A DNA stretch of 35,711 nucleotides, from the NCBI GenBank assembly GCA_003552785.1, contig PUOQ01000035.1:1-35711 (forward strand), in the 5' to 3' direction. Both the position numbers and the translations under genes were made by a program. The notes beneath the pieces are model-generated. The model saw nothing but the letters and a program-made list of their open reading frames with translations, was not told the origin of the DNA and ran no database searches. Origin of the DNA: Dehalococcoidia bacterium (GTDB taxonomy: Bacteria; Chloroflexota; Dehalococcoidia; Dehalococcoidales; CSSed11-197). The stretch's first letter is position 1. Every line of letters begins with the position of its first letter. Positions 7,838 through 14,426 of the stretch are shown here, piece by piece.

Positions 7838-8545
7838 CTAAGAAGCTTTTTCGGGTTTCCAGACCTGCCACACTTTACCCACAAGTTCAGGAGAGGGTTT
7901 TAAAGTCTGTTTGCCCGGCTGCCACTCGGATGGCATTACTTCACCTGTCTTGCGTGTATGCTGGAAAGCTTTGATCTGGCGAATCAGTTCACCAACATTG
8001 CGCCCTACCGGCGGAGTCAGCACTTCCATTGCCTGTATAATCCCATCAGGATCGATTATGAAACGGCCACGAATGTTAACACCTGCATCCTCATTATAAA
8101 CCCCGTAAGCACTCCCGATACGTCCGCCCTGATCCGAAAGCATAGGAAAAGGAACCCCTCCATCAACCATCCTGGAAAGCTCTTCTTCCTGCCATATTTT
8201 GTGAGAAAACTGGCTGTCGGTGCTAATAGAAAACACCTGCACTCCCAGTTCTTTTAACTCGTCATGCCTGGCGGCAACTGCCCCCAACTCCGTCGGTCAG
8301 ACAAAGGTAAAATCACCCGGGTAGAAACATACAACTACCCACTTCCCCTTGCTGTCTGATAGCTTAACTTTTTTAAACCCTCCGTCAACAAAAGCGTTGG
8401 CTTCAAAATCCGGAGCTGGTTTACCTACCTTTGCTGTCATAACTTGCTTTGATTCCTCCTTCTGATTTTCTTTCTGCTCGCCTGCTTCGCTATCGGAAAC
8501 AGGGCCTTTTGCTGGACTTACACATCCAGGTGGTTTTTCAGCCAC
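7838..8545 (-). CDS. prxU: Selenocysteine-containing peroxiredoxin (AhpC/Prx1 family, PrxU-like); TGA at 8297-8299 read as Sec
   Basis: ORFs 8297..8551 and 7838..8287 are in the same frame and separated only by TGA. Read-through gives KPAPDF...[22 protein letters not shown]...STDS...[10 protein letters not shown]...[11 protein letters not shown], collinear with 2-Cys Prx/AhpC, with the TGA exactly at the FVCPTE Cys. Two starts are possible: GTG 8545 (SD AGGAGG 6 nt upstream) or ATG 8440 (canonical Prx N-terminus [12 protein letters not shown]). Confidence 0.85.
8268..8287 (-). promoter_or_regulatory. Candidate bacterial SECIS hairpin downstream of the Sec UGA
   Basis: The mRNA reads UGA-CCGACGGAG-UUGGGGGCAGUUGCCGCCAG. 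This gives stem UUGG/CCAG, a G-G mismatch, stem GGC/GCC and apical loop AGUU (which contains G-U), about 18-21 nt after the UGA. Folded by eye only. Confidence 0.4.
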
Positions 8546-8613
8546 TAGCAACCTCCTGAAGAATTATTATTAATTAAACCCTGGTATATGATGGGTAATT
8601 AATCAAGCGTTAT

Positions 8614-9018
8614 TCAACCAACTGGCAATCTTTTCCGGGATTCAGTACAGACACTGCAGGCACCGAAGAACTCAACATGGTGGAACTTTACCTCGGCGCC
8701 GGTTTTACCTTCCACCCATCGATCAAGCTCCTGCTTGACCGGCACATCAAGATCAAAAACTCCGCCGCACTGTTCACATTTCAGATGATAATGAACAACC
8801 GGGTTTCCGTCATAACGATTGGCATTGCTGTCAATTTTAAGTTCTAAAATGCGCCCCGACTGAGTCAATTGTTTCAAGTTGCGGTAAACAGTCCCTTTGG
8901 AAATATTGGGTATGATCTTACGTGCTTCATCATAAACCCAGTCCGCATTGGGATGGCTTTTTGTATTTTTTAAAATGTTTATAATGACCTGTTTCTGTTT
9001 CGTATTTCTTTGTTTCAT
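8614..9018 (-). CDS. Fur-family metalloregulator (Fur/PerR-type)
   Basis: N-terminal winged helix (NTKQKQVIINIL...HPNADWVYDE...ISKGTVYRNLKQL). HYH motif, and two CxxC pairs (CEQCG, CSVCT) for the structural Zn site. Located directly upstream of the peroxiredoxin. Confidence 0.85.
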   Translation of the reverse strand: MKQRNTKQKQVIINILKNTKSHPNADWVYDEARKIIPNISKGTVYRNLKQLTQSGRILELKIDSNANRYDGNPVVHYHLKCEQCGGVFDLDVPVKQELDRWVEGKTGAEVKFHHVEFFGACSVCTESRKRLPVG

Positions 9019-9113
9019 ACTAATACCTATTACTAATATTATTAAACAACAAACTTGTGTGATATGTCAAACGGCTTCATTGCTCAAAGTACCTTACCAA
9101 AGACTGCATATGC

Positions 9114-9142
9114 TTGACAAACATTAAGCACAGGAATAAAAT
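9114..9142 (+). promoter_or_regulatory. Sigma-70-type promoter of the DUF5320/NifX/MinD-like cluster
   Basis: TTGACA (9114-9119), a 17-nt spacer, then TAAAAT (9137-9142). A second TATAAT lies at 9163-9168. Confidence 0.55.
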
Positions 9143-9143
9143 A

Positions 9144-9165
9144 ATAATGAGCATATGCTCATTAT
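9144..9165. promoter_or_regulatory. 22-bp perfect palindrome, putative Fur-family operator
   Basis: ATAATGAGCAT|ATGCTCATTAT is exactly self-complementary. The outer heptamers ATAATGA/TCATTAT match Fur-box half-sites. It lies immediately downstream of the -10 element and 33 nt upstream of the first cluster gene. Confidence 0.5.
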
Positions 9166-9198
9166 AATACCAATGAAGCGGGCAAGGAGGTGAACTAT

Positions 9199-9456
9199 AT
9201 GTTTAACAGAGAAGTAAACGCCAGGCATTTCAACCGGAGACTCGGAATGGGATTTGGCTTCAAGGGTTATTCCCCGCCATGGCCTTATACCGGGCGGGGT
9301 AGAGGTGGTTTGCCCAGATGCGAGTATTTCACAGGTGCCACCAGGAAACCCTTAAGCAGGCAGGATGAATTGAATGACCTGAAAAGCCGTGCAGAATTTC
9401 TGAAAAACGAGCTTAAAGATCTGGAAGCCGAAATACAATCACTAGCGGAAAAATAA
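9199..9456 (+). CDS. DUF5320-family protein (Gly/Arg-rich N-terminus plus C-terminal coiled coil)
   Basis: SD AAGGAGG lies 8 nt upstream of ATG 9199. GRGRGGLPRCEYF is followed by the heptad-like LNDLKSRAEFLKNELKDLEAEIQSLAEK. The family typically neighbours NifX-like and MinD-like genes. Confidence 0.65.
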   Translation: MFNREVNARHFNRRLGMGFGFKGYSPPWPYTGRGRGGLPRCEYFTGATRKPLSRQDELNDLKSRAEFLKNELKDLEAEIQSLAEK

Positions 9457-9475
9457 TAGTATTGGAGGAAAACAG

Positions 9476-9880
9476 GTGAAAATAGCCGTTTCTTCAACGG
9501 GTGCCAGCCTGAATTCGCAGATAGAGCCAAGATTTGGGCGGTGCGAACAATTTATCATAGTGGACCCTGAAACAATGCGTTTCGAGGTTATGGAAAACCC
9601 CGGCTCGATAGCCAGCGGGGGAGCGGGCATAACAACAGCCCAGGAAATTGCCCGGAAAGGCGCTGAAGCAGTTATTACGGGCCACTGTGGACCCAATGCC
9701 CACCGGGTATTGACTACAGCCGGGATAGACGTAATAACGGGGGTTTCGGGTACAGTACAGGAAGTTGTAACCGGGTATATAAGGGGCCAGTACACTCCAT
9801 CAGTCAACCCCAACGCCCCCGAACACTTCGGAGCTGGAGCCGGGTTTAAACGGGGTAAAGGGAAGGGCAGCAATTTATAA
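9476..9880 (+). CDS. NifB/NifX-family (dinitrogenase FeMo-cofactor-binding domain, COG1433) protein
   Basis: MKIAVSS...IEPRFGRCEQFIIVD...GGAGITTAQEIARKGAEAVITGHCGPNAHRVLTTAGIDV is typical of the Nitro_FeMo-Co domain. SD GGAGGA lies 6 nt upstream of the GTG start. Confidence 0.85.
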   Translation: MKIAVSSTGASLNSQIEPRFGRCEQFIIVDPETMRFEVMENPGSIASGGAGITTAQEIARKGAEAVITGHCGPNAHRVLTTAGIDVITGVSGTVQEVVTGYIRGQYTPSVNPNAPEHFGAGAGFKRGKGKGSNL

Positions 9881-9914
9881 TTGCCAGACATTTTAGAGGC
9901 AGATAACCACTACT

Positions 9915-10760
9915 ATGCTTATATCTATTGCCAGCGGTAAAGGCGGCACAGGCAAAACACTGGTAGCCACCAGCCTTGCCTGTGCCATCAAAGATACATA
10001 CAGTGTTGAGCTTATAGACTGTGATGTCGAAGAGCCGAATGCACACATTTTCATAAACCCCGAATTTACCGTTAGTGAAGTTGTAGAAACACCCGTACCC
10101 AAAATCGATGAGTCAAAGTGCAACCACTGCGCCAAATGCTCCAAAGCGTGTGTTTTTAACGCCATAGCGATACTCAATGAATCGGTTCTTACTTTTCCAG
10201 ATTTGTGTCATGGATGCGGGGTATGTGCCTTCGTCTGCGAAAGAAAGGCTATAACTGAAGTGCCGTATCGTACAGGCCTAATTGAAAAGGGCTATGCACC
10301 AGGCATAAAATTCAAGCAGGGCAAGCTTGATATAGGCAGGGCTATGGCAACACCAGTTATAAAAAAATTAAAGGAGGATGCAGGTAAAGAACAGGATGTA
10401 ACCTTTATTGACTCACCTCCGGGCACCTCCTGTTCAATGGTAGAGGCGGTAGATGCCAGTGATTTGTGCTTGCTGGTGACCGAATCCACCCCATTCGGGT
10501 TAAACGACCTTGAACTGGCCCTGCAAACCATTAACCAGCTGGGAGTTCCGGGGGCCGTTATAATAAACCGGGCCCGCCCTGAAGACAGAAGAGTCGAGCA
10601 GTACTGCCAGCAAAACCAGGTCCCAATTCTCATGCAGATACCACTGGATTACAGTATCGCCAGGTTATATTCAAAGGGTATAACCCTTGCCCTTGGTTCC
10701 CCACAGTGGCGAGAGAATTTCAGGCACCTTTTTGAAAAAACAAAGGAGCTTGTCAGGTGA
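9915..10760 (+). CDS. MinD/ParA-superfamily P-loop ATPase with inserted 2x[4Fe-4S] ferredoxin domain (COG1149-type)
   Basis: Deviant Walker A SGKGGTGKT. Two ferredoxin motifs, CNHCAKCSKAC and CHGCGVCAFVC, are inserted after it. Walker B-like region VTFIDSPPG. Confidence 0.85.
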   Translation: MLISIASGKGGTGKTLVATSLACAIKDTYSVELIDCDVEEPNAHIFINPEFTVSEVVETPVPKIDESKCNHCAKCSKACVFNAIAILNESVLTFPDLCHGCGVCAFVCERKAITEVPYRTGLIEKGYAPGIKFKQGKLDIGRAMATPVIKKLKEDAGKEQDVTFIDSPPGTSCSMVEAVDASDLCLLVTESTPFGLNDLELALQTINQLGVPGAVIINRARPEDRRVEQYCQQNQVPILMQIPLDYSIARLYSKGITLALGSPQWRENFRHLFEKTKELVR

Positions 10761-11611
10761 AGGAAATAGTCGTTCTAAGCGGTAAAGGCGGAACTGGAAA
10801 AACCTGTATAGCTGCCTCATTTGCGGTGCTTGCCAAAAACAAGGTGATGGCCGATTGTGACGTGGATGCTGCCAATCTTAACCTGCTGCTTGCCCATGAA
10901 ATCCTGGAAGAACATGAATTCCAAAGCGGACAGGTAGCCAGAATAAACGAGGCCAGTTGCCTGAGTTGCCGACTCTGCGAGCAGTACTGCCGCTTTGATG
11001 CCATTGATAACTGCCAGGTAGTCGAAACCAGGTGCGAGGGGTGTGGATTATGTTTGCTTGTTTGCCCGTTTGAAGCAGTAAGCATGCACCCCAATATTGC
11101 CGGCAAATGGTTTGTGTCAAACACCCGGTACGGAAAGTTTGTACATGCCCGCCTGGGCATTGCCCAGGGAAGTTCGGGCAAGCTTGTAGCCATGGTAAGG
11201 CAAAAAGCCAAAGACATCGCCGGGACAAACAGCGCCGAATATATAATAACAGACGGGCCGCCAGGCACCGGATGCCCGGCCATTTCTTCCCTGTCTGATG
11301 CTGACCTTGCCCTGCTGGTAACAGAACCAACCCTGACCGCACATCATGACCTGGAAAGAGTAGCAGGTTTATGCCGGCATTTTGGAGTCTCGCAGGCAGT
11401 ATGCATTAATAAGTGCGACTTAAACGAGAGTAACAGCCGGAGCATTGAAAAATATTGTGAAAAATTAAATATACCCGTAGTTGGTAGAATACCTGTAGAC
11501 GACAGCTTCACCAGGGCAGTGGAACAGGGCATCCCGGTTGTTGAATTCACCTGCAACAGCCCGGTGAAAGAAATAGAGAAGATGTGGGCTTTCTTAGATT
11601 CCAGGATCTAA
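10757..11611 (+). CDS. Second MinD/ParA-superfamily ATPase with inserted 2x[4Fe-4S] ferredoxin domain (COG1149-type)
   Basis: SGKGGTGKT, CLSCRLCEQYC, CEGCGLCLLVC and IITDGPPG motifs. The GTG start overlaps the preceding stop (GTGA), suggesting translational coupling. Confidence 0.85.
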   Translation: MKEIVVLSGKGGTGKTCIAASFAVLAKNKVMADCDVDAANLNLLLAHEILEEHEFQSGQVARINEASCLSCRLCEQYCRFDAIDNCQVVETRCEGCGLCLLVCPFEAVSMHPNIAGKWFVSNTRYGKFVHARLGIAQGSSGKLVAMVRQKAKDIAGTNSAEYIITDGPPGTGCPAISSLSDADLALLVTEPTLTAHHDLERVAGLCRHFGVSQAVCINKCDLNESNSRSIEKYCEKLNIPVVGRIPVDDSFTRAVEQGIPVVEFTCNSPVKEIEKMWAFLDSRI

Positions 11612-11670
11612 TGCGATGATACCTGATGATACATTTAATAAAAATATAATCAAAATAAACGGAGGAAGCT

Positions 11671-12036
11671 ATGAAATACGCCATACCCCTGACCAATAAA
11701 AGAGTATCACCCCATTTCGGCCACTGTGAACAATTTGCCATAATTGAGGTTGATGAAAGCACAAAGGAAATAACAGGAAAGGAAATGGTTACACCGCCTC
11801 CGCACCAGCCCGGAGTGCTGCCCAAGTGGCTGGCAGGTTATAATGTTTCGGCCATAATAGCCGGGGGCATGGGGCTTCGTGCCAGAGAACTTTTCAAAAG
11901 CAATAATATTGACGTTATCACCGGTGCCACCGGAATAGAACCGGAAAAAGCAGCCAGAGATTATTTGCAAGGCACTCTTCAAACCGGAGATAACACATGT
12001 GATCACGGAAACGGGCACCATACCTGCAACCACTGA
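11671..12036 (+). CDS. NifB/NifX-family (COG1433) protein with Cys/His-rich C-terminal tail
   Basis: MKYAIPL...VSPHFGHCEQFAIIEVD...IAGGMG...IDVITG domain. The tail is TCDHGNGHHTCNH. SD GGAGGA precedes the ATG. Confidence 0.85.
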   Translation: MKYAIPLTNKRVSPHFGHCEQFAIIEVDESTKEITGKEMVTPPPHQPGVLPKWLAGYNVSAIIAGGMGLRARELFKSNNIDVITGATGIEPEKAARDYLQGTLQTGDNTCDHGNGHHTCNH

Positions 12037-12070
12037 TACATTTTTAAAAAATTCAGCGAAAGGTTAAAGC

Positions 12071-13069
12071 ATGACAGACAAGAGCCTGGTTAAACAAAAA
12101 CTGGAAAACCTGGTACTGCCCAATGCAAAACGGAGCATTACCGAACTCAACCTGGTACGGGAAATAAGTATAGATGATGCCGGGGTAAACGTCACCCTGG
12201 CATCGACAACCATGCTACCCAAGCTCCAGGACTGGTTAAAAAAGAAAGTAACCGAAACCATCAAGGAAATAAACGGCGTAAAAGAAGTAAACATCAAATA
12301 CTGTGACTGCAAAACTGGAGAACTCAACAACATAAAACAAACACTGGCAGTCATGAGCGGTAAGGGGGGTGTCGGCAAATCCCTGGTAACCGGCCTGGTT
12401 GCAGTAGCTCTCAAAAAGCAGGGCTACCAGGTTGGCATCCTGGATGCCGACATCACCGGACCTTCAATTCCTAAAATGTTTGGCGTAAATTCTCCGCCCA
12501 GTGGCAGCGACACCGGTATTTTGCCCGTTGTTTCAGAAACAGGCATTCCTCTAATGTCTATAAATCTCATCCTGCCCGATGAAGGGGAAGCCGTCATCTG
12601 GCGGGGCCCAATGATTGCCAATGCCATAAAACAGTTTCACGATGATGTCCTCTGGGGAAACCTGGACTATCTGGTTGTGGACCTGCCGCCGGGTACTGCG
12701 GATGCACCCTTAACGGTAATGCAATCATTCCCCATTTCTGGCGTGATTATAGTATTTACGCCCCAGGATCTGGTGGATATGATAGTTAAAAAAGCCCTGA
12801 ACATGGCCAGGAAAATGGATAAAAAGGTGCTGGGCGTGGTTGAAAATATGAGCTACCTGTATGTCCCGGAGCTGGATAAAAACATCGAAATATTCGGTGA
12901 AAGCCGCGGTGAAACAATGTCTGAAGCTGCCAAAGCCCCTCTGCTGGGCCAGATACCCATAGACCCTGAACTGGCAAAGCTTTGTGACGCAGGAAGCATA
13001 GAAGAATACGATGGAGAGGTTGTGCGTAATTTAAGTGAAAAATTAAAACAGGAGCTATCAGTCCAGTAA
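12071..13069 (+). CDS. Mrp/NBP35/ApbC-family P-loop ATPase lacking the conserved CxxC cluster-ligand motif
   Basis: N-terminal DUF59-like domain, Walker A SGKGGVGKS and DLPPGT motif. ENMSYLYVPELDKNIEIFG sits where family members have ENMS..xCxxCxxxxxIFG. Confidence 0.85.
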   Translation: MTDKSLVKQKLENLVLPNAKRSITELNLVREISIDDAGVNVTLASTTMLPKLQDWLKKKVTETIKEINGVKEVNIKYCDCKTGELNNIKQTLAVMSGKGGVGKSLVTGLVAVALKKQGYQVGILDADITGPSIPKMFGVNSPPSGSDTGILPVVSETGIPLMSINLILPDEGEAVIWRGPMIANAIKQFHDDVLWGNLDYLVVDLPPGTADAPLTVMQSFPISGVIIVFTPQDLVDMIVKKALNMARKMDKKVLGVVENMSYLYVPELDKNIEIFGESRGETMSEAAKAPLLGQIPIDPELAKLCDAGSIEEYDGEVVRNLSEKLKQELSVQ

Positions 13070-13085
13070 TATTTCAACCTCAACC

Positions 13086-14426
13086 TTATCCAAAGCGTAA
13101 CGCATATGTGTCAATATCGAATTTGCGCTTTAGCCCCCGGGCATTCATATAACGAACACTGCCAAACACCGGCCGGGCAGCCCATGGGCGGTCGTGCTTT
13201 CCAAAACACCAGGCCACCCCTGCATAACTATTGGGGTCACGCCCGTCCAGTTGATATTTGTTATTAAGGTAAATACAGCGCCTGAAAGCTTCCACGGGCT
13301 CAGCACTCCACTCTATAATCTTTTTCCCCCAGTACATACGCATATAACCATGCATTTTTCCAGTTAGCACCATTTCCTTCTGGGCGGCATTCCAATACTG
13401 GTCATGGGTTTTGGCTTTTTCCAGCTCTTCCAGTGAATAAATATATTCCCTGGAATCAATTTCCCGCTCTCTTAAAACCCTGCTGGCCCATGCCGGCAAT
13501 CCATGGAAAGAGTGGTAATTTGAATTATAGTATACAAAATTCATACTCAGCTCGCGCCTTACAATCAACTCTTCCAGATAAGCCTCGGTTCCGGGGGATG
13601 CAACGCGGGCAACTTCAAGTGCAACAGCAAGCGGTGATATCTGGCCAAAATGCAGGTATGGGCTCATGCCTGAAAGTACATCCCGCACCGGGTCGTTTCT
13701 AAACCTGGAGTAGCTGTCCAGCCTTTGCTCAATGAAATTCCGCAGAATTGTTTTAGCCGTAGTGTTGCCACCGGTAAGCAAATCAACACTCATTACACTC
13801 ATGTCGATATCCAGGGTTTTTAATAATTCATTTGTGTTTTTTAATAAGAGGCCTTCAAATTCCATTGATAGAGATGAATTTTTTGGGGCTCTTGCCTCCA
13901 GAGGTGCCAGGTATTGCGGCAGTTTTTTGTAAATCTTTGGCCTCAAAGTGGCAGCACTGTATTCCTCTTTCGAAGATGCCTCTTCAACCGGTACAACCAC
14001 GTCACTTTCTACCTGTAAACAAGGGGCTGAGATTTTACGAGATGCATGTTTGCGCCATCTTCGCTGAAAGGCAAGATAACCCCGGTCACAGACAACCAGA
14101 GCTGCATTTTCTGACATCTTTACAGCCCCCTCGTCCGGAGGCTCTTGCCGGACTACCATTTTAATTCCGCACTGCTCCAGGCTTGCCTTTACTTCTTCCA
14201 AGCCCTGCAACATGAAAAGGTAATATCTAAGATTGGCTTCGGGGTAATTGCAGGTAAGGCCAAAGTATACTACAAGGGGCAAATTCAACTCATCAGCTTT
14301 CCGGACGGCAAACTCAAGAGCGTGATTATACTCTGAGCGCTGAGAAGCCTGCATCCAATAAAGTACATAACTGCCGCCGGTGACTTTTTTTGTATTCAGC
14401 AGCTTGATTCTGCCGGCTTGAATCAA
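13086..14426 (-). CDS. phr: Deoxyribodipyrimidine (CPD) photolyase, class II
   Basis: N-terminus YVLYWMQASQRSEYNHAL and C-terminus RYMNARGLKRKFDIDTY are typical of class II photolyases. TTG start with SD GGAGG 7 nt upstream. Confidence 0.88.
   Translation of the reverse strand: MIQAGRIKLLNTKKVTGGSYVLYWMQASQRSEYNHALEFAVRKADELNLPLVVYFGLTCNYPEANLRYYLFMLQGLEEVKASLEQCGIKMVVRQEPPDEGAVKMSENAALVVCDRGYLAFQRRWRKHASRKISAPCLQVESDVVVPVEEASSKEEYSAATLRPKIYKKLPQYLAPLEARAPKNSSLSMEFEGLLLKNTNELLKTLDIDMSVMSVDLLTGGNTTAKTILRNFIEQRLDSYSRFRNDPVRDVLSGMSPYLHFGQISPLAVALEVARVASPGTEAYLEELIVRRELSMNFVYYNSNYHSFHGLPAWASRVLREREIDSREYIYSLEELEKAKTHDQYWNAAQKEMVLTGKMHGYMRMYWGKKIIEWSAEPVEAFRRCIYLNNKYQLDGRDPNSYAGVAWCFGKHDRPWAARPVFGSVRYMNARGLKRKFDIDTYALRFG

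Follow-up and report, generated by a model that had tools for sequence, protein, structure and literature searches.

A probable Dehalococcoidia form of the ORP (orange protein) gene cluster of anaerobes, with a split MrpORP and a candidate DUF134-type operator

The ORP (orange protein) gene cluster of D. vulgaris Hildenborough is arranged as orp3-orp4-orp5 / orpR / orp7-orp8-orp9 (Fievet et al. 2011; PMC3897727; PMC8359166). Experiments on the Desulfovibrio system have demonstrated that its proteins form a complex, that MrpORP passes Fe-S clusters to Orp3/Orp4, and that regulation is redox-dependent (PMC6345978, PMC8359166, PMC3897727); the D. vulgaris proteins Orp3, Orp4, and Orp8 purify together and receive Fe-S clusters from MrpORP (PMC6345978). 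[quoted passage not shown] The Desulfovibrio authors favour a role in cell division (PMC4672049), while calling the role of ORP still unclear. In IssA of Pyrococcus furiosus, a cationic Gly-rich tail binds thioferrate (PMC5524996).

The genes considered here lie on contig PUOQ01000035.1 of a Dehalococcoidia bacterium (assembly GCA_003552785.1), in a window of 35,711 nucleotides, the whole stretch of DNA that was analysed. They very probably represent the Dehalococcoidia form of the anaerobe ORP complex gene cluster. A preliminary description had taken them for an undescribed system, but the gene set is that of the published Desulfovibrio cluster (PMC6345978, PMC8359166, PMC3897727); its statement that no function is established holds for the physiological role. 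The features, with the names used below, are as follows.

9114..9142, plus strand: sigma-70-type promoter TTGACA-17-TAAAAT, 11/12 consensus positions, the best match in the region
9141..9168, no strand: predicted palindromic operator, perfect 22-nt core 9144-9165, from an inverted-repeat search
9199-9456 (alternative start 9190), plus strand: g1 (ORF1), DUF5320 protein, PF17253
9476-9880, plus strand: g2 (ORF2), ORP/Orp8-like single-domain Di-Nase protein (Nitro_FeMo-Co, PF02579) with a short Gly/Lys-rich tail
9915-10760, plus strand: g3 (ORF3), Orp3-like MinD-type ATPase with a 2x[4Fe-4S] ferredoxin insert
10757-11611, plus strand: g4 (ORF4), Orp4-like paralogue of g3
11671-12036, plus strand: g5 (ORF5), stand-alone MrpORP-type Di-Nase domain with a Cys/His-rich C-terminus
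12071-13069, plus strand: g6 (ORF6), DUF59 plus Mrp/NBP35 P-loop ATPase without the canonical CxxC
C14:1827-2156, on another contig: the sole DUF134 gene of the genome, beside IscU-like genes

The list of open reading frames agrees with the preliminary description in placing six tightly packed genes on the plus strand between 9199 and 13069. The g3/g4 overlap of 4 nt (GTGA) couples translation of g4 to that of g3, the remaining gaps measure 19, 34, 59, and 34 nt, and AAGGAGG stands 9 nt ahead of the g1 ATG at 9199. The domains named earlier (DUF5320, two NifX-like, two MinD-ferredoxin ATPases, Mrp) were recovered by Pfam for all six genes, and the Cys/His-rich tail reported for one FeMo-cofactor-domain protein is seen in the translation of g5. 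Exact contigs in a sediment metatranscriptome span the g1/g2, g3/g4, and g5/g6 junctions, and a larger DNA library from the same sample covers less of the operon locus than the metatranscriptome does; the record consists of assembled contigs and is unstranded, and DNA carry-over may contribute to it.

Gene identities and conservation

The assignment to the ORP family follows from the MrpORP matches of g6 and g5, the motifs of g5, the closest solved relative of g2, and the neighbours of MrpORP in Desulfobacterota. Pfam recognizes g6 as FeS_assembly_P (DUF59) plus a NUBPL/Mrp P-loop domain (295 bits); it matches positions 1-238 of the NCBIfam MrpORP model with 306.8 bits (family cut-off 450), while g5 matches positions 265-365 with 122.6 bits and contains HFGHCE, TPPPHxPGxxP, and CDH in translation and alignment. 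By these profile matches, MrpORP is represented here by two separate genes, with the Di-Nase half (g5) placed ahead of the P-loop half (g6) in a swapped order. The Nitro_FeMo-Co domain scores 85.5 bits in g2 and 76.1 bits in g5. Among solved structures, the D. gigas orange protein (2WFB, E 1e-19) ranks first as a relative of g2, and MTH1175 (1EO1) follows with a nearly equal score. By homology and synteny, g2 is an orange-protein-like carrier, and the ATPases g3 and g4 correspond to Orp3/Orp4.

In Desulfobacterota, most of the examined loci with a bona fide MrpORP (>450 bits) have homologues of g2, g3, and g4, with 35-54% identity, on the flanks of the fused gene. A survey of co-occurrence and synteny, as the preliminary description had proposed, found the core genes co-conserved in 80 related loci from many bacterial and archaeal phyla. 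Homologues of g3 and g4 neighbour each other in essentially all of them, and those of g2, g5, and g6 stand beside the pair in most, nearly always on the same strand; the gene arrangement is therefore far from chance. In the sampling of its own class the cluster occurs in only 14 of 81 genomes; the suggested link to particular client enzymes such as reductive dehalogenases is not indicated by this distribution.

g1 matches PF17253 with 28.5 bits (cut-off 27); its N-terminal half is rich in Gly and Arg, and a coiled coil makes up the C-terminal part. A jackhmmer profile detected DUF5320-type modules in 56/80 loci; in 27 of the loci the module is joined to the Di-Nase protein, and Pfam confirmed the DUF5320-ORP-like fusion in all six proteins tested. 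Judged by these fusions, g1 is a detached version of the tail that relatives carry on an ORP-like protein of the g2 type.

An unusual feature concerns g6, in which ..YLYVPELDK.. replaces ..FVCPNCGHK.. of Mrp in the alignment to PDB 2ph1. CxxC was found in no Mrp of any Dehalococcoidia-type locus and in 0/120 best database homologues of g6; it is kept in every Mrp of other loci that aligned across the motif. The sole invariant cysteine of g6 is C305, and a search of the genome turned up no other Mrp. Since g6 lacks the CxxC of the cluster-carrying Mrp, it may not share the sole activity that has been demonstrated for MrpORP.

The ATPase pair and its possible functions

Each of g3 and g4 combines a CbiA/ParA P-loop with two 4Fe-4S motifs (Pfam); the two share about 28-30% identity and carry, as does g6, the deviant Walker A motif GKGGxGK[TS] in translation. 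The pairing of such ATPases with small cluster carriers, emphasized in the preliminary description, is upheld by domains and synteny alike. Invariant across 86 homologues of g3 are the eight ferredoxin cysteines, C36 in switch I, and C173, seven residues past the Walker-B aspartate; across 83 homologues of g4, C173 is invariant and position C34 is Cys in 69%. In a profile alignment, whose overall probability is low for g3, C173 coincides with the switch II cluster-ligand cysteine of NifH; both ATPases carry an invariant cysteine at this position. The AF2 model of g3 (pLDDT 94.9) ends in a long C-terminal helix, and its closest folds, MinD, FleN, HypB-ATPase, NifH/BchL, and ApbC, are all dimeric SIMIBI ATPases.

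The explanation that we favour as a whole, and regard as reasonably probable, is an ORP-type cluster that performs ATP-driven cluster handling under DUF134 control; the handling mechanism itself is advanced tentatively, as a proposal that falls somewhat short of being probable. g3 and g4 would form an ATP-dependent MinD/NifH-like heterodimer bearing four ferredoxin-type [4Fe-4S] clusters, and the invariant cysteines of switches I and II might provide an additional metal or cluster site at the interface; conserved cysteines and the profile alignment suggest that such an interface cluster may be present. By binding and hydrolysing ATP, the heterodimer would pass electrons to a labile inorganic iron-sulfur (metal-sulfide) species or deliver that species, which would be held non-covalently on g2, g5, and the cationic Gly/Arg-rich segment of g1, comparable to IssA with thioferrate. 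With its CxxC ligands lost, g6 would probably act as ATPase partner of g5 and not as a cluster scaffold. Iron-sulfur handling is suggested by the IscU-like NifU_N genes in 28/80 neighbourhoods, the Fur-family genes in 15/80, with classical Fur boxes near several, and the DUF5320 fusion that resembles the IssA tail. Counting against it, the cluster with which the orange protein itself was purified is of the Mo-Cu-S and not of the Fe-S type.

Alternatively, the Orp3/Orp4-type ATPases could belong to a MinD-like spatial or cell-division system that positions the septum or another structure, the clusters serving as redox sensors only. Such a system is what the Desulfovibrio authors propose. D. vulgaris cells that lose OrpR, and with it the Orp proteins, show morphological defects, MrpORP is polar, and Orp3 and Orp4 reportedly possess a MinD-like C-terminal amphipathic helix. 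The top solved folds for g3 are likewise archaeal MinD proteins, and the long C-terminal helix is present, but NifH/BchL and ApbC score equally well, the operon has no MinC/MinE-like partner, and the invariant interface together with the eight ferredoxin cysteines suggests redox or cluster chemistry. Moreover, the conserved neighbour families of the 80 loci handle Fe-S clusters or metals (IscU-like, Mrp, Fur, Di-Nase carriers, radical SAM) and include no division genes, which makes the division reading unlikely here.

Handling of a Mo- or W-Cu-sulfide of the thiomolybdate type, for Mo/W storage, cofactor supply, or copper/thiomolybdate detoxification, has in its favour that the top relative of g2 is the S2MoS2CuS2MoS2 carrier of D. 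gigas. In nitrogenase systems, Di-Nase domains bind FeMo-co precursors. Against this, MTH1175, the template of the IssA domain, nearly ties with ORP as a relative of g2, the Gly/Arg-rich tails are similar to the IssA tail that binds thioferrate, and the recurrent neighbours are of the iron-sulfur type (IscU-like, Fur, Mrp), with no molybdate/tungstate transport or molybdopterin family among those identified; the Mo/W variant is considered improbable. An origin as a leftover or auxiliary part of nitrogenase-type cofactor biosynthesis, in which the carriers would be NifX/NafY-like and the ATPase NifH-like, would accommodate the Nitro_FeMo-Co domains and the NifH-position cysteine of g3 and g4. 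In agreement with the preliminary description, which had thought a role in nitrogen fixation unlikely, the entire 1.42-Mb, 92%-complete assembly yielded no NifD/K/E/N-type gene. Of five Desulfobacterota genomes that encode a canonical MrpORP, four of which also have the neighbouring orp genes, four lack nifH, and the cluster is common in non-diazotrophic lineages. We give this origin hardly any credence.

Promoter, palindrome, and candidate regulator

In the favoured cluster-handling scheme, transcription would start from the strong sigma-70 promoter, and the sole DUF134 protein would probably repress it via the palindrome, which overlaps the -10 box and the expected transcription start. The palindrome is unique in the genome except for a degenerate copy at C14:1794, ahead of the DUF134 gene, where promoter and operator have the same layout as in the operon. 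With up to 4 mismatches allowed, 14 copies were counted in 0.94 Mb of ORP-type loci versus 0 in 20 shuffles, and in 11 loci the palindrome stands 35-110 nt upstream of a DUF134 gene. On these purely comparative grounds, the protein that binds the operator 9141-9168 is most likely a repressor of the DUF134 family whose gene lies in trans. An OrpR-type enhancer-binding protein was not found in the genome, the best Sigma54_activat match scoring 32 bits.

A Fur-like operator had been proposed earlier, and a PerR-like (Fur-family) gene (8614-9018) and a Sec-peroxiredoxin gene indeed adjoin the operon divergently. One might envisage a PerR/Fur-controlled oxidative-stress module that repairs or replaces oxidised Fe-S clusters together with the selenoperoxiredoxin; PrxU adjoins the ORP-type clusters of loci L025 and L109 as well, and the palindrome has outer heptamers similar to the half-sites of a Fur box. 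However, the palindrome tracks DUF134 regulator genes across loci, directly preceding them in the 11 cases above, and recurs in loci without a Fur gene. A second, AT-rich Per-box-like palindrome (9030-9045) beside the PerR start fits perR-prxU autoregulation better than the operon palindrome does. Furthermore, a rising redox potential turns the Desulfovibrio orp genes off, not on, and the stress-module reading appears quite unlikely.

Comparison with known systems

The D. vulgaris ORP system shares with the present operon the paired MinD-type ATPases with 2x[4Fe-4S] inserts, an orange-protein Di-Nase, an Mrp/NBP35 ATPase plus Di-Nase domain, the restriction to anaerobes, and the independence from nitrogenase. 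There, two divergent sigma-54 operons are found, in contrast to a single sigma-70 operon here, which has only two Di-Nase genes, no separate Orp5 equivalent, a split MrpORP, DUF5320 as first gene, and a palindromic, putatively DUF134-type operator.

MrpORP itself (Orp9, DVU2109 / Dde3202; NF041136; Pardoux et al. 2019, PMC6345978) corresponds in its P-loop half to g6, where the deviant Walker A is retained, and in its Di-Nase half to g5, with all three motifs retained. It differs in that two genes are present here, the Di-Nase one first and both scoring under the family cut-off, that g6 carries an N-terminal DUF59 domain, and that the CxxC bridging the transferable [4Fe-4S] cluster gives way to a conserved YLYVPE[IL]DK.

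IssA and the uncharacterised 'IssX' (Vaccaro et al. 2017, PMC5524996) combine, as here, a Di-Nase domain (IPR003731) with a cationic Gly-rich disordered tail, and the IssA model was built on MTH1175, the second-best solved relative of g2. In the present operon, however, the Gly/Arg-rich segment resides mostly on the separate g1, followed by a coiled coil, and the tail of g2 is short.

With the dimeric SIMIBI ATPases of the NifH/BchL and Nbp35-Cfd1 types, g3 and g4 have in common the deviant Walker A dimer architecture, a cysteine placed relative to the Walker-B aspartate like the switch II ligand of NifH, and, as in Nbp35-Cfd1, two distinct paralogues always side by side. The second cluster ligand of NifH has no counterpart in g3/g4, which are without a known catalytic partner component and carry a two-cluster ferredoxin insert absent from every solved member.

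Gene content and relation to the orange protein cluster

The six plus-strand genes g1 to g6 lie behind a sigma-70-type promoter and a palindrome and are tightly packed, with a GTGA overlap joining g3 to g4 and intergenic gaps of 19-59 nt elsewhere. Every domain named in the preliminary description was recovered with Pfam and NCBIfam.

Features of the ORP-type operon
9114-9142, plus strand: sigma-70-type promoter, 11/12 consensus positions
9141-9168, no strand assigned: palindrome (predicted operator), perfect 22-nt core at 9144-9165, directly after the promoter
9199-9456, plus strand: g1, DUF5320, slightly above the Pfam cut-off; alternative GTG start at 9190
9476-9880, plus strand: g2, Nitro_FeMo-Co ("Di-Nase") domain
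9915-10760, plus strand: g3, MinD/CbiA P-loop with two 4Fe-4S motifs
10757-11611, plus strand: g4, MinD/CbiA P-loop with two 4Fe-4S motifs
11671-12036, plus strand: g5, Nitro_FeMo-Co ("Di-Nase") domain
12071-13069, plus strand: g6, DUF59 and Mrp/NUBPL P-loop

The assembly containing the window amounts to 1.42 Mb (92% complete), its nearest relatives are Dehalococcoidales and Dehalococcoidia MAGs, and the window DNA was found again in salt-lake and soda-lake metagenomes. A DNA photolyase gene (13086-14426, minus strand) is convergent with the operon.

In Desulfovibrio, the genes of the orange protein (ORP) complex are orp3-orp4-orp5 and orp7-orp8-orp9, with Orp3 and Orp4 being paralogous ATPases with two [4Fe-4S] motifs apiece, Orp8 the orange protein, and Orp9 (MrpORP) an Mrp-Di-Nase fusion; the physical complex was demonstrated in D. 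vulgaris only, and the sole activity demonstrated for MrpORP is the transfer of a CxxC-bridged [4Fe-4S] cluster to Orp3/Orp4 (PMC6345978). Judged from the encoded proteins, the window cluster, introduced in the preliminary description as an undescribed system, matches this published cluster gene by gene, whereas the accompanying statement that no function has been established experimentally is, according to the literature, still fair for the ORP cluster. Literature searches on COG1149/COG1433, DUF5320 and DUF134 gave no relevant match.

The MrpORP model NF041136 (NCBIfam) is divided between the last two genes: it matches g6 with 306.8 bits over positions 1-238, the P-loop half, and g5 with 122.6 bits over positions 265-365, the Di-Nase half. 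The Di-Nase motifs of g5 read SPHFGHCE, TPPPHQPGVLP and a terminal CDH, compared with the published CxHFGHCE (first Cys replaced by Ser), TPPPHxPGxxP and CDH. The top PDB match for g2 is the D. gigas ORP (2WFB, E 1e-19). MrpORP itself was found above the curated cut-off in 39 of 251 sampled Desulfobacterota genomes; at six of eight examined loci, homologues of g2, g3 and g4 flank the fused gene with 35-54% identity to the window proteins, and the ATPase pair adjoining bona fide MrpORP genes is 39-48% identical to g3/g4.

Cross-genome synteny and co-occurrence, one of the checks named in the preliminary description, bear the cluster out: the gene set is co-conserved across a comparison set of 80 loci from many phyla, spanning Chloroflexota, Desulfobacterota, Bacillota, Omnitrophota, Zixibacteria, Aminicenantes, Bathyarchaeia, Methanocellaceae and others. 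Homologues of g3 and g4 stand side by side in essentially all of these loci, which were retrieved with g3, and g2-, g5- and g6-type genes adjoin the pair in most of them, nearly always on the same strand. This synteny, together with the fusion of g1 and g2 in relatives, suggests that the window proteins could form an Orp complex. Within the window's own class, the ORP-type cluster is patchy and dispensable even between close relatives. A single client enzyme, such as rdhA, a hydrogenase or CODH, is unlikely, because many phyla have the cluster, compared with only 14 of the 81 sampled genomes of that class, mostly small ones. Two complete genomes of ≈ 1.4-1.5 Mb, G299 and G320, belong to the same genus of the window's order; a g3 homologue occurs in one of the two.

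Concerning expression, a sediment metatranscriptome contained exact contigs across the g1/g2, g3/g4 and g5/g6 junctions and none over the promoter gap, and a three-fold larger DNA library from the same sediment sample contained less of the ORP locus than the RNA. This lends modest support to expression of the operon in situ, as the contigs cannot prove one transcript and DNA carry-over is possible.

Carriers and ATPases

In many relatives the g2-type protein is extended by a (GMGRGM)n repeat and, after it, a coiled coil, and this tail was identified by Pfam as DUF5320 in six of six fused proteins tested. A tblastn search with g1 recovered few DUF5320 genes, and a jackhmmer profile was required; with it, DUF5320 modules were found in 56 of the 80 loci (27 with a fused form, 50 with a stand-alone one), counts that are approximate owing to the partly low-complexity profile (Pfam confirmed seven of seven cases checked). 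Thus g1 and g2 represent the split version of a fusion protein, and such a fusion in relatives is classic evidence that the two work together. The tail of g2 is merely 29 residues long with a net charge of +3, and the long (GMGRGM)n tails sit on relatives or on g1. The comparison here is with IssA, which stores iron-sulfur as thioferrate in Pyrococcus; its authors used MTH1175 as template and pointed to a mesophilic "IssX" clade that is uncharacterised (PMC5524996). MTH1175 is also the second-best solved relative of g2, and IssA, with its Di-Nase domain and cationic Gly-rich tail, has the same architecture as the fused g2-type/DUF5320 relatives. The Rosetta-stone fusion connects DUF5320 with an orange-protein-like carrier and would also tie it to IssA-like iron-sulfur storage.

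Several cysteines are conserved in the ATPase pair. The eight ferredoxin Cys of each protein do not vary among 86 g3-type and 83 g4-type sequences, and C173, which lies seven residues beyond the Walker-B Asp, is likewise invariant in either paralogue. Switch I has a D-C-D whose cysteine, C36, never varies among g3-type proteins; at the corresponding position of g4 (C34), 69% of the homologues have Cys. In a profile alignment, C173 coincides with the cysteine of DVLGDVVC in NifH from one fetched genome, which is the switch II [4Fe-4S] ligand Cys132 of NifH. This equivalence rests on the Walker A and Walker B anchors, because global hhalign against NifH gave a probability of only 1% for the g3 family (91% for g4). 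The AF2 model of g3 (pLDDT 94.9) has as Foldseek neighbours MinD, FleN, the ATPase-type HypB, NifH, BchL, ApbC and Cfd1, all of them dimeric SIMIBI ATPases, and the ferredoxin insert is absent from every one. With TM values of 0.55-0.64 throughout, MinD and NifH/BchL/ApbC are indistinguishable as relatives of g3; a MinD-like role in division is one of the rival readings. A nitrogenase-related role, to which the cysteine at the NifH position might point, is opposed by the lack of any match to PF00148 (NifD/K/E/N-type) in the window's genome (92% complete) and by the absence of nifH from four of five genomes with a canonical MrpORP gene. We infer that g3 and g4 form a nucleotide-switched heterodimer, whose interface may hold a further cluster or metal site; the invariant cysteine in both ATPases provides a testable handle.

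When g6 is aligned with archaeal Mrp (PDB 2ph1), YLYVPELDK replaces the CxxC cluster ligands, while its P-loop domain scores 295 bits with PF10609 and matches PDB 2ph1/3kb1 with E 1e-70. The replacement is common to all Dehalococcoidia-type loci, CPxC being kept by every Mrp of the other loci that aligns across the motif, and it recurs in 120 of the best 120 database homologues of g6 (64-70% identical; where named, Dehalococcoidia or Chloroflexota). Such conservation marks the loss as an old and conserved one, kept under selection, and not as decay. The single invariant Cys of the CxxC-less clade, C305 (..AKLCDAG..) near the C-terminus, is Ala in 2ph1 and may be a replacement ligand. A search of the window's genome (92% complete) gave no Mrp besides g6. 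In Dehalococcoidia-type genomes, the MrpORP-type Di-Nase gene (g5) lies directly 5' of the Mrp gene, and we infer that g6 supplies the ATPase function to its cluster-binding partner g5. With the CxxC missing, the cluster-transfer activity of MrpORP may therefore not apply here, and the conserved CxxC-less Mrp raises doubt whether Mrp cluster transfer is the core ORP activity.

Predicted operator and regulatory neighbourhood

The palindrome on the ORP promoter (9144-9165) is of the ATnATGAGCATATGCTCATnAT type. Within 0.94 Mb of ORP-type loci from several phyla, 14 copies with ≤ 4 mismatches were found, versus none in 20 shuffles, the consensus across loci being ATaATGAGCATATGCTCATAAt. In 11 loci, a DUF134 gene follows 35-110 nt downstream; the DUF134 product (PF02001) is small and has a helix-turn-helix resembling sigma-70 region 4. 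A Fur/PerR operator at 9141-9168, suggested by the divergent Fur-family gene upstream and in line with the "Fur-like operator" of the preliminary description, was also considered and was abandoned as the best reading, since the cross-locus search linked the palindrome to DUF134 genes, not Fur genes.

The genome has this palindrome only once, and thus no regulon is definable. The sole DUF134 gene of this genome (C14:1827-2156, on another contig) carries a degenerate copy at C14:1794 on its own promoter, in the same layout as at the ORP operon; being a poor palindrome, this copy would not stand alone and was counted for its place on the DUF134 promoter and its matching layout.

Second locus with the operator type
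C14:1794-4827: degenerate operator, DUF134, IscU-like, metallo-beta-lactamase, IscU-like, DUF364, in this order

Of the 80 loci, 28 have the IscU-like, 20 the metallo-beta-lactamase and 10 the DUF364 family beside the ORP cluster, and in other genomes families of the C14 locus are found inside ORP-type clusters. In the window's genome, the extended ORP gene set is thus split over two loci with one operator type. The DUF134 protein acting in trans is the best candidate for the repressor of the ORP operon, and the window provides a precise candidate operator for this uncharacterised regulator.

The divergent Fur-family gene upstream (8614-9018, minus strand) has its top NCBIfam score with PerR, below the cut-offs, and directly precedes a peroxiredoxin gene of the same orientation. 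Beside the PerR-like start codon (region 9009-9053), the AT-rich sequence TTACTAATATTATTAA (9030-9045) forms a Per-box-like palindrome that fits autoregulation of perR-prxU. This PerR-like neighbour brings in the rival reading of the cluster as a PerR-controlled repair module; perR-prxU is probably a unit apart from the ORP operon. The peroxiredoxin gene (7838-8551, minus strand) has an in-frame TGA exactly at the peroxidatic Cys (FTFV-U-PTE) and hence encodes a selenoprotein of the PrxU type; an exact metatranscriptome contig extends over 8102-8584, and L025 (Dehalococcoidia) and L109 (Desulfobacterota) have the same split Prx next to their ORP-type clusters.

Elsewhere, a Fur-family gene heads the ORP-type cluster in 15 of the 80 loci, with classical Fur boxes at several; the system is therefore tied to iron in general, a point to be set beside the rival proposal of Mo/W-Cu-S handling. 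At nine loci from Omnitrophota, Planctomycetes, WOR-3 and Eubacteriales (L033, L034, L035, L043, L045, L051, L052, L061, L080), the Fur-family gene lies 5' of the cluster on the same strand, with Fur-box-like sites just 5' of it, for example at L052:871 (2 mismatches to the 19-mer).

Proposed function and comparison with known systems

Most likely, the ORP-type system is an ATP-driven device that holds and passes on, or reductively mobilises, labile inorganic iron-sulfur (metal-sulfide) species, in which the Di-Nase/DUF5320 proteins would act as carriers, the Orp3/Orp4-type pair as redox ATPase and the Mrp-type protein as a further ATPase partner. A more specific joint reading, which we consider unlikely with its substrate, Mrp and DUF134 parts included, would see in the Orp3/Orp4-type heterodimer a low-potential reductase driven by ATP, NifH-like but of a class not recognised so far. 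This reductase would act on a stored thioferrate-like iron-sulfide polymer on the Di-Nase/DUF5320 proteins and not on an enzyme partner, and ATP hydrolysis would reductively free this store to give [4Fe-4S] clusters for IscU/Mrp-type carriers. The Dehalococcoidia Mrp, having lost CxxC and gained one new invariant Cys, would then be only the ATPase of the g5 carrier, and the whole system would stand under DUF134, a repressor family without known function.

Among the conserved gene clusters of strictly anaerobic bacteria and archaea, the ORP set is one of the most widespread to lack an assigned cellular function, and studies so far have dealt with Desulfovibrio only. With six genes in a genome of 1.4 Mb, the window copy is a minimal version and points to the indispensable parts. 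It is real but of a known kind, distinguished by its split MrpORP with the conserved loss of CxxC and by the candidate operator for a trans-acting DUF134 protein.

Along these lines, the window shares with the Desulfovibrio ORP cluster an Orp3/Orp4-type pair of MinD-type ATPases with two [4Fe-4S] motifs each (g3/g4) and an Orp8-type single-domain Di-Nase (g2); the Mrp/NBP35 and Di-Nase parts of Orp9 are both present, yet as two adjacent genes (g5, g6). In contrast to the one fused gene of the MrpORP family (NF041136), these are separate and in reversed order, and each scores below the family cut-off of 450 bits. In g6, the deviant Walker A (GKGGxGKS) and P-loop fold of the Mrp/NBP35/ApbC carriers are kept, but the CxxC cluster ligands found in these carriers and in MrpORP are absent. 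While the Desulfovibrio cluster is under sigma-54/OrpR/IHF control, the window has a sigma-70-type promoter, and no convincing Sigma54_activat protein of the OrpR type was found in its genome; since OrpR is limited to Deltaproteobacteria according to its authors, sigma-54/OrpR control is a trait of the Desulfovibrio version and not of the gene set. With the conserved palindrome at its promoter and a DUF134 gene elsewhere in its genome, the operon instead falls into a class of DUF134-regulated ORP-type operons that is defined comparatively, not experimentally.
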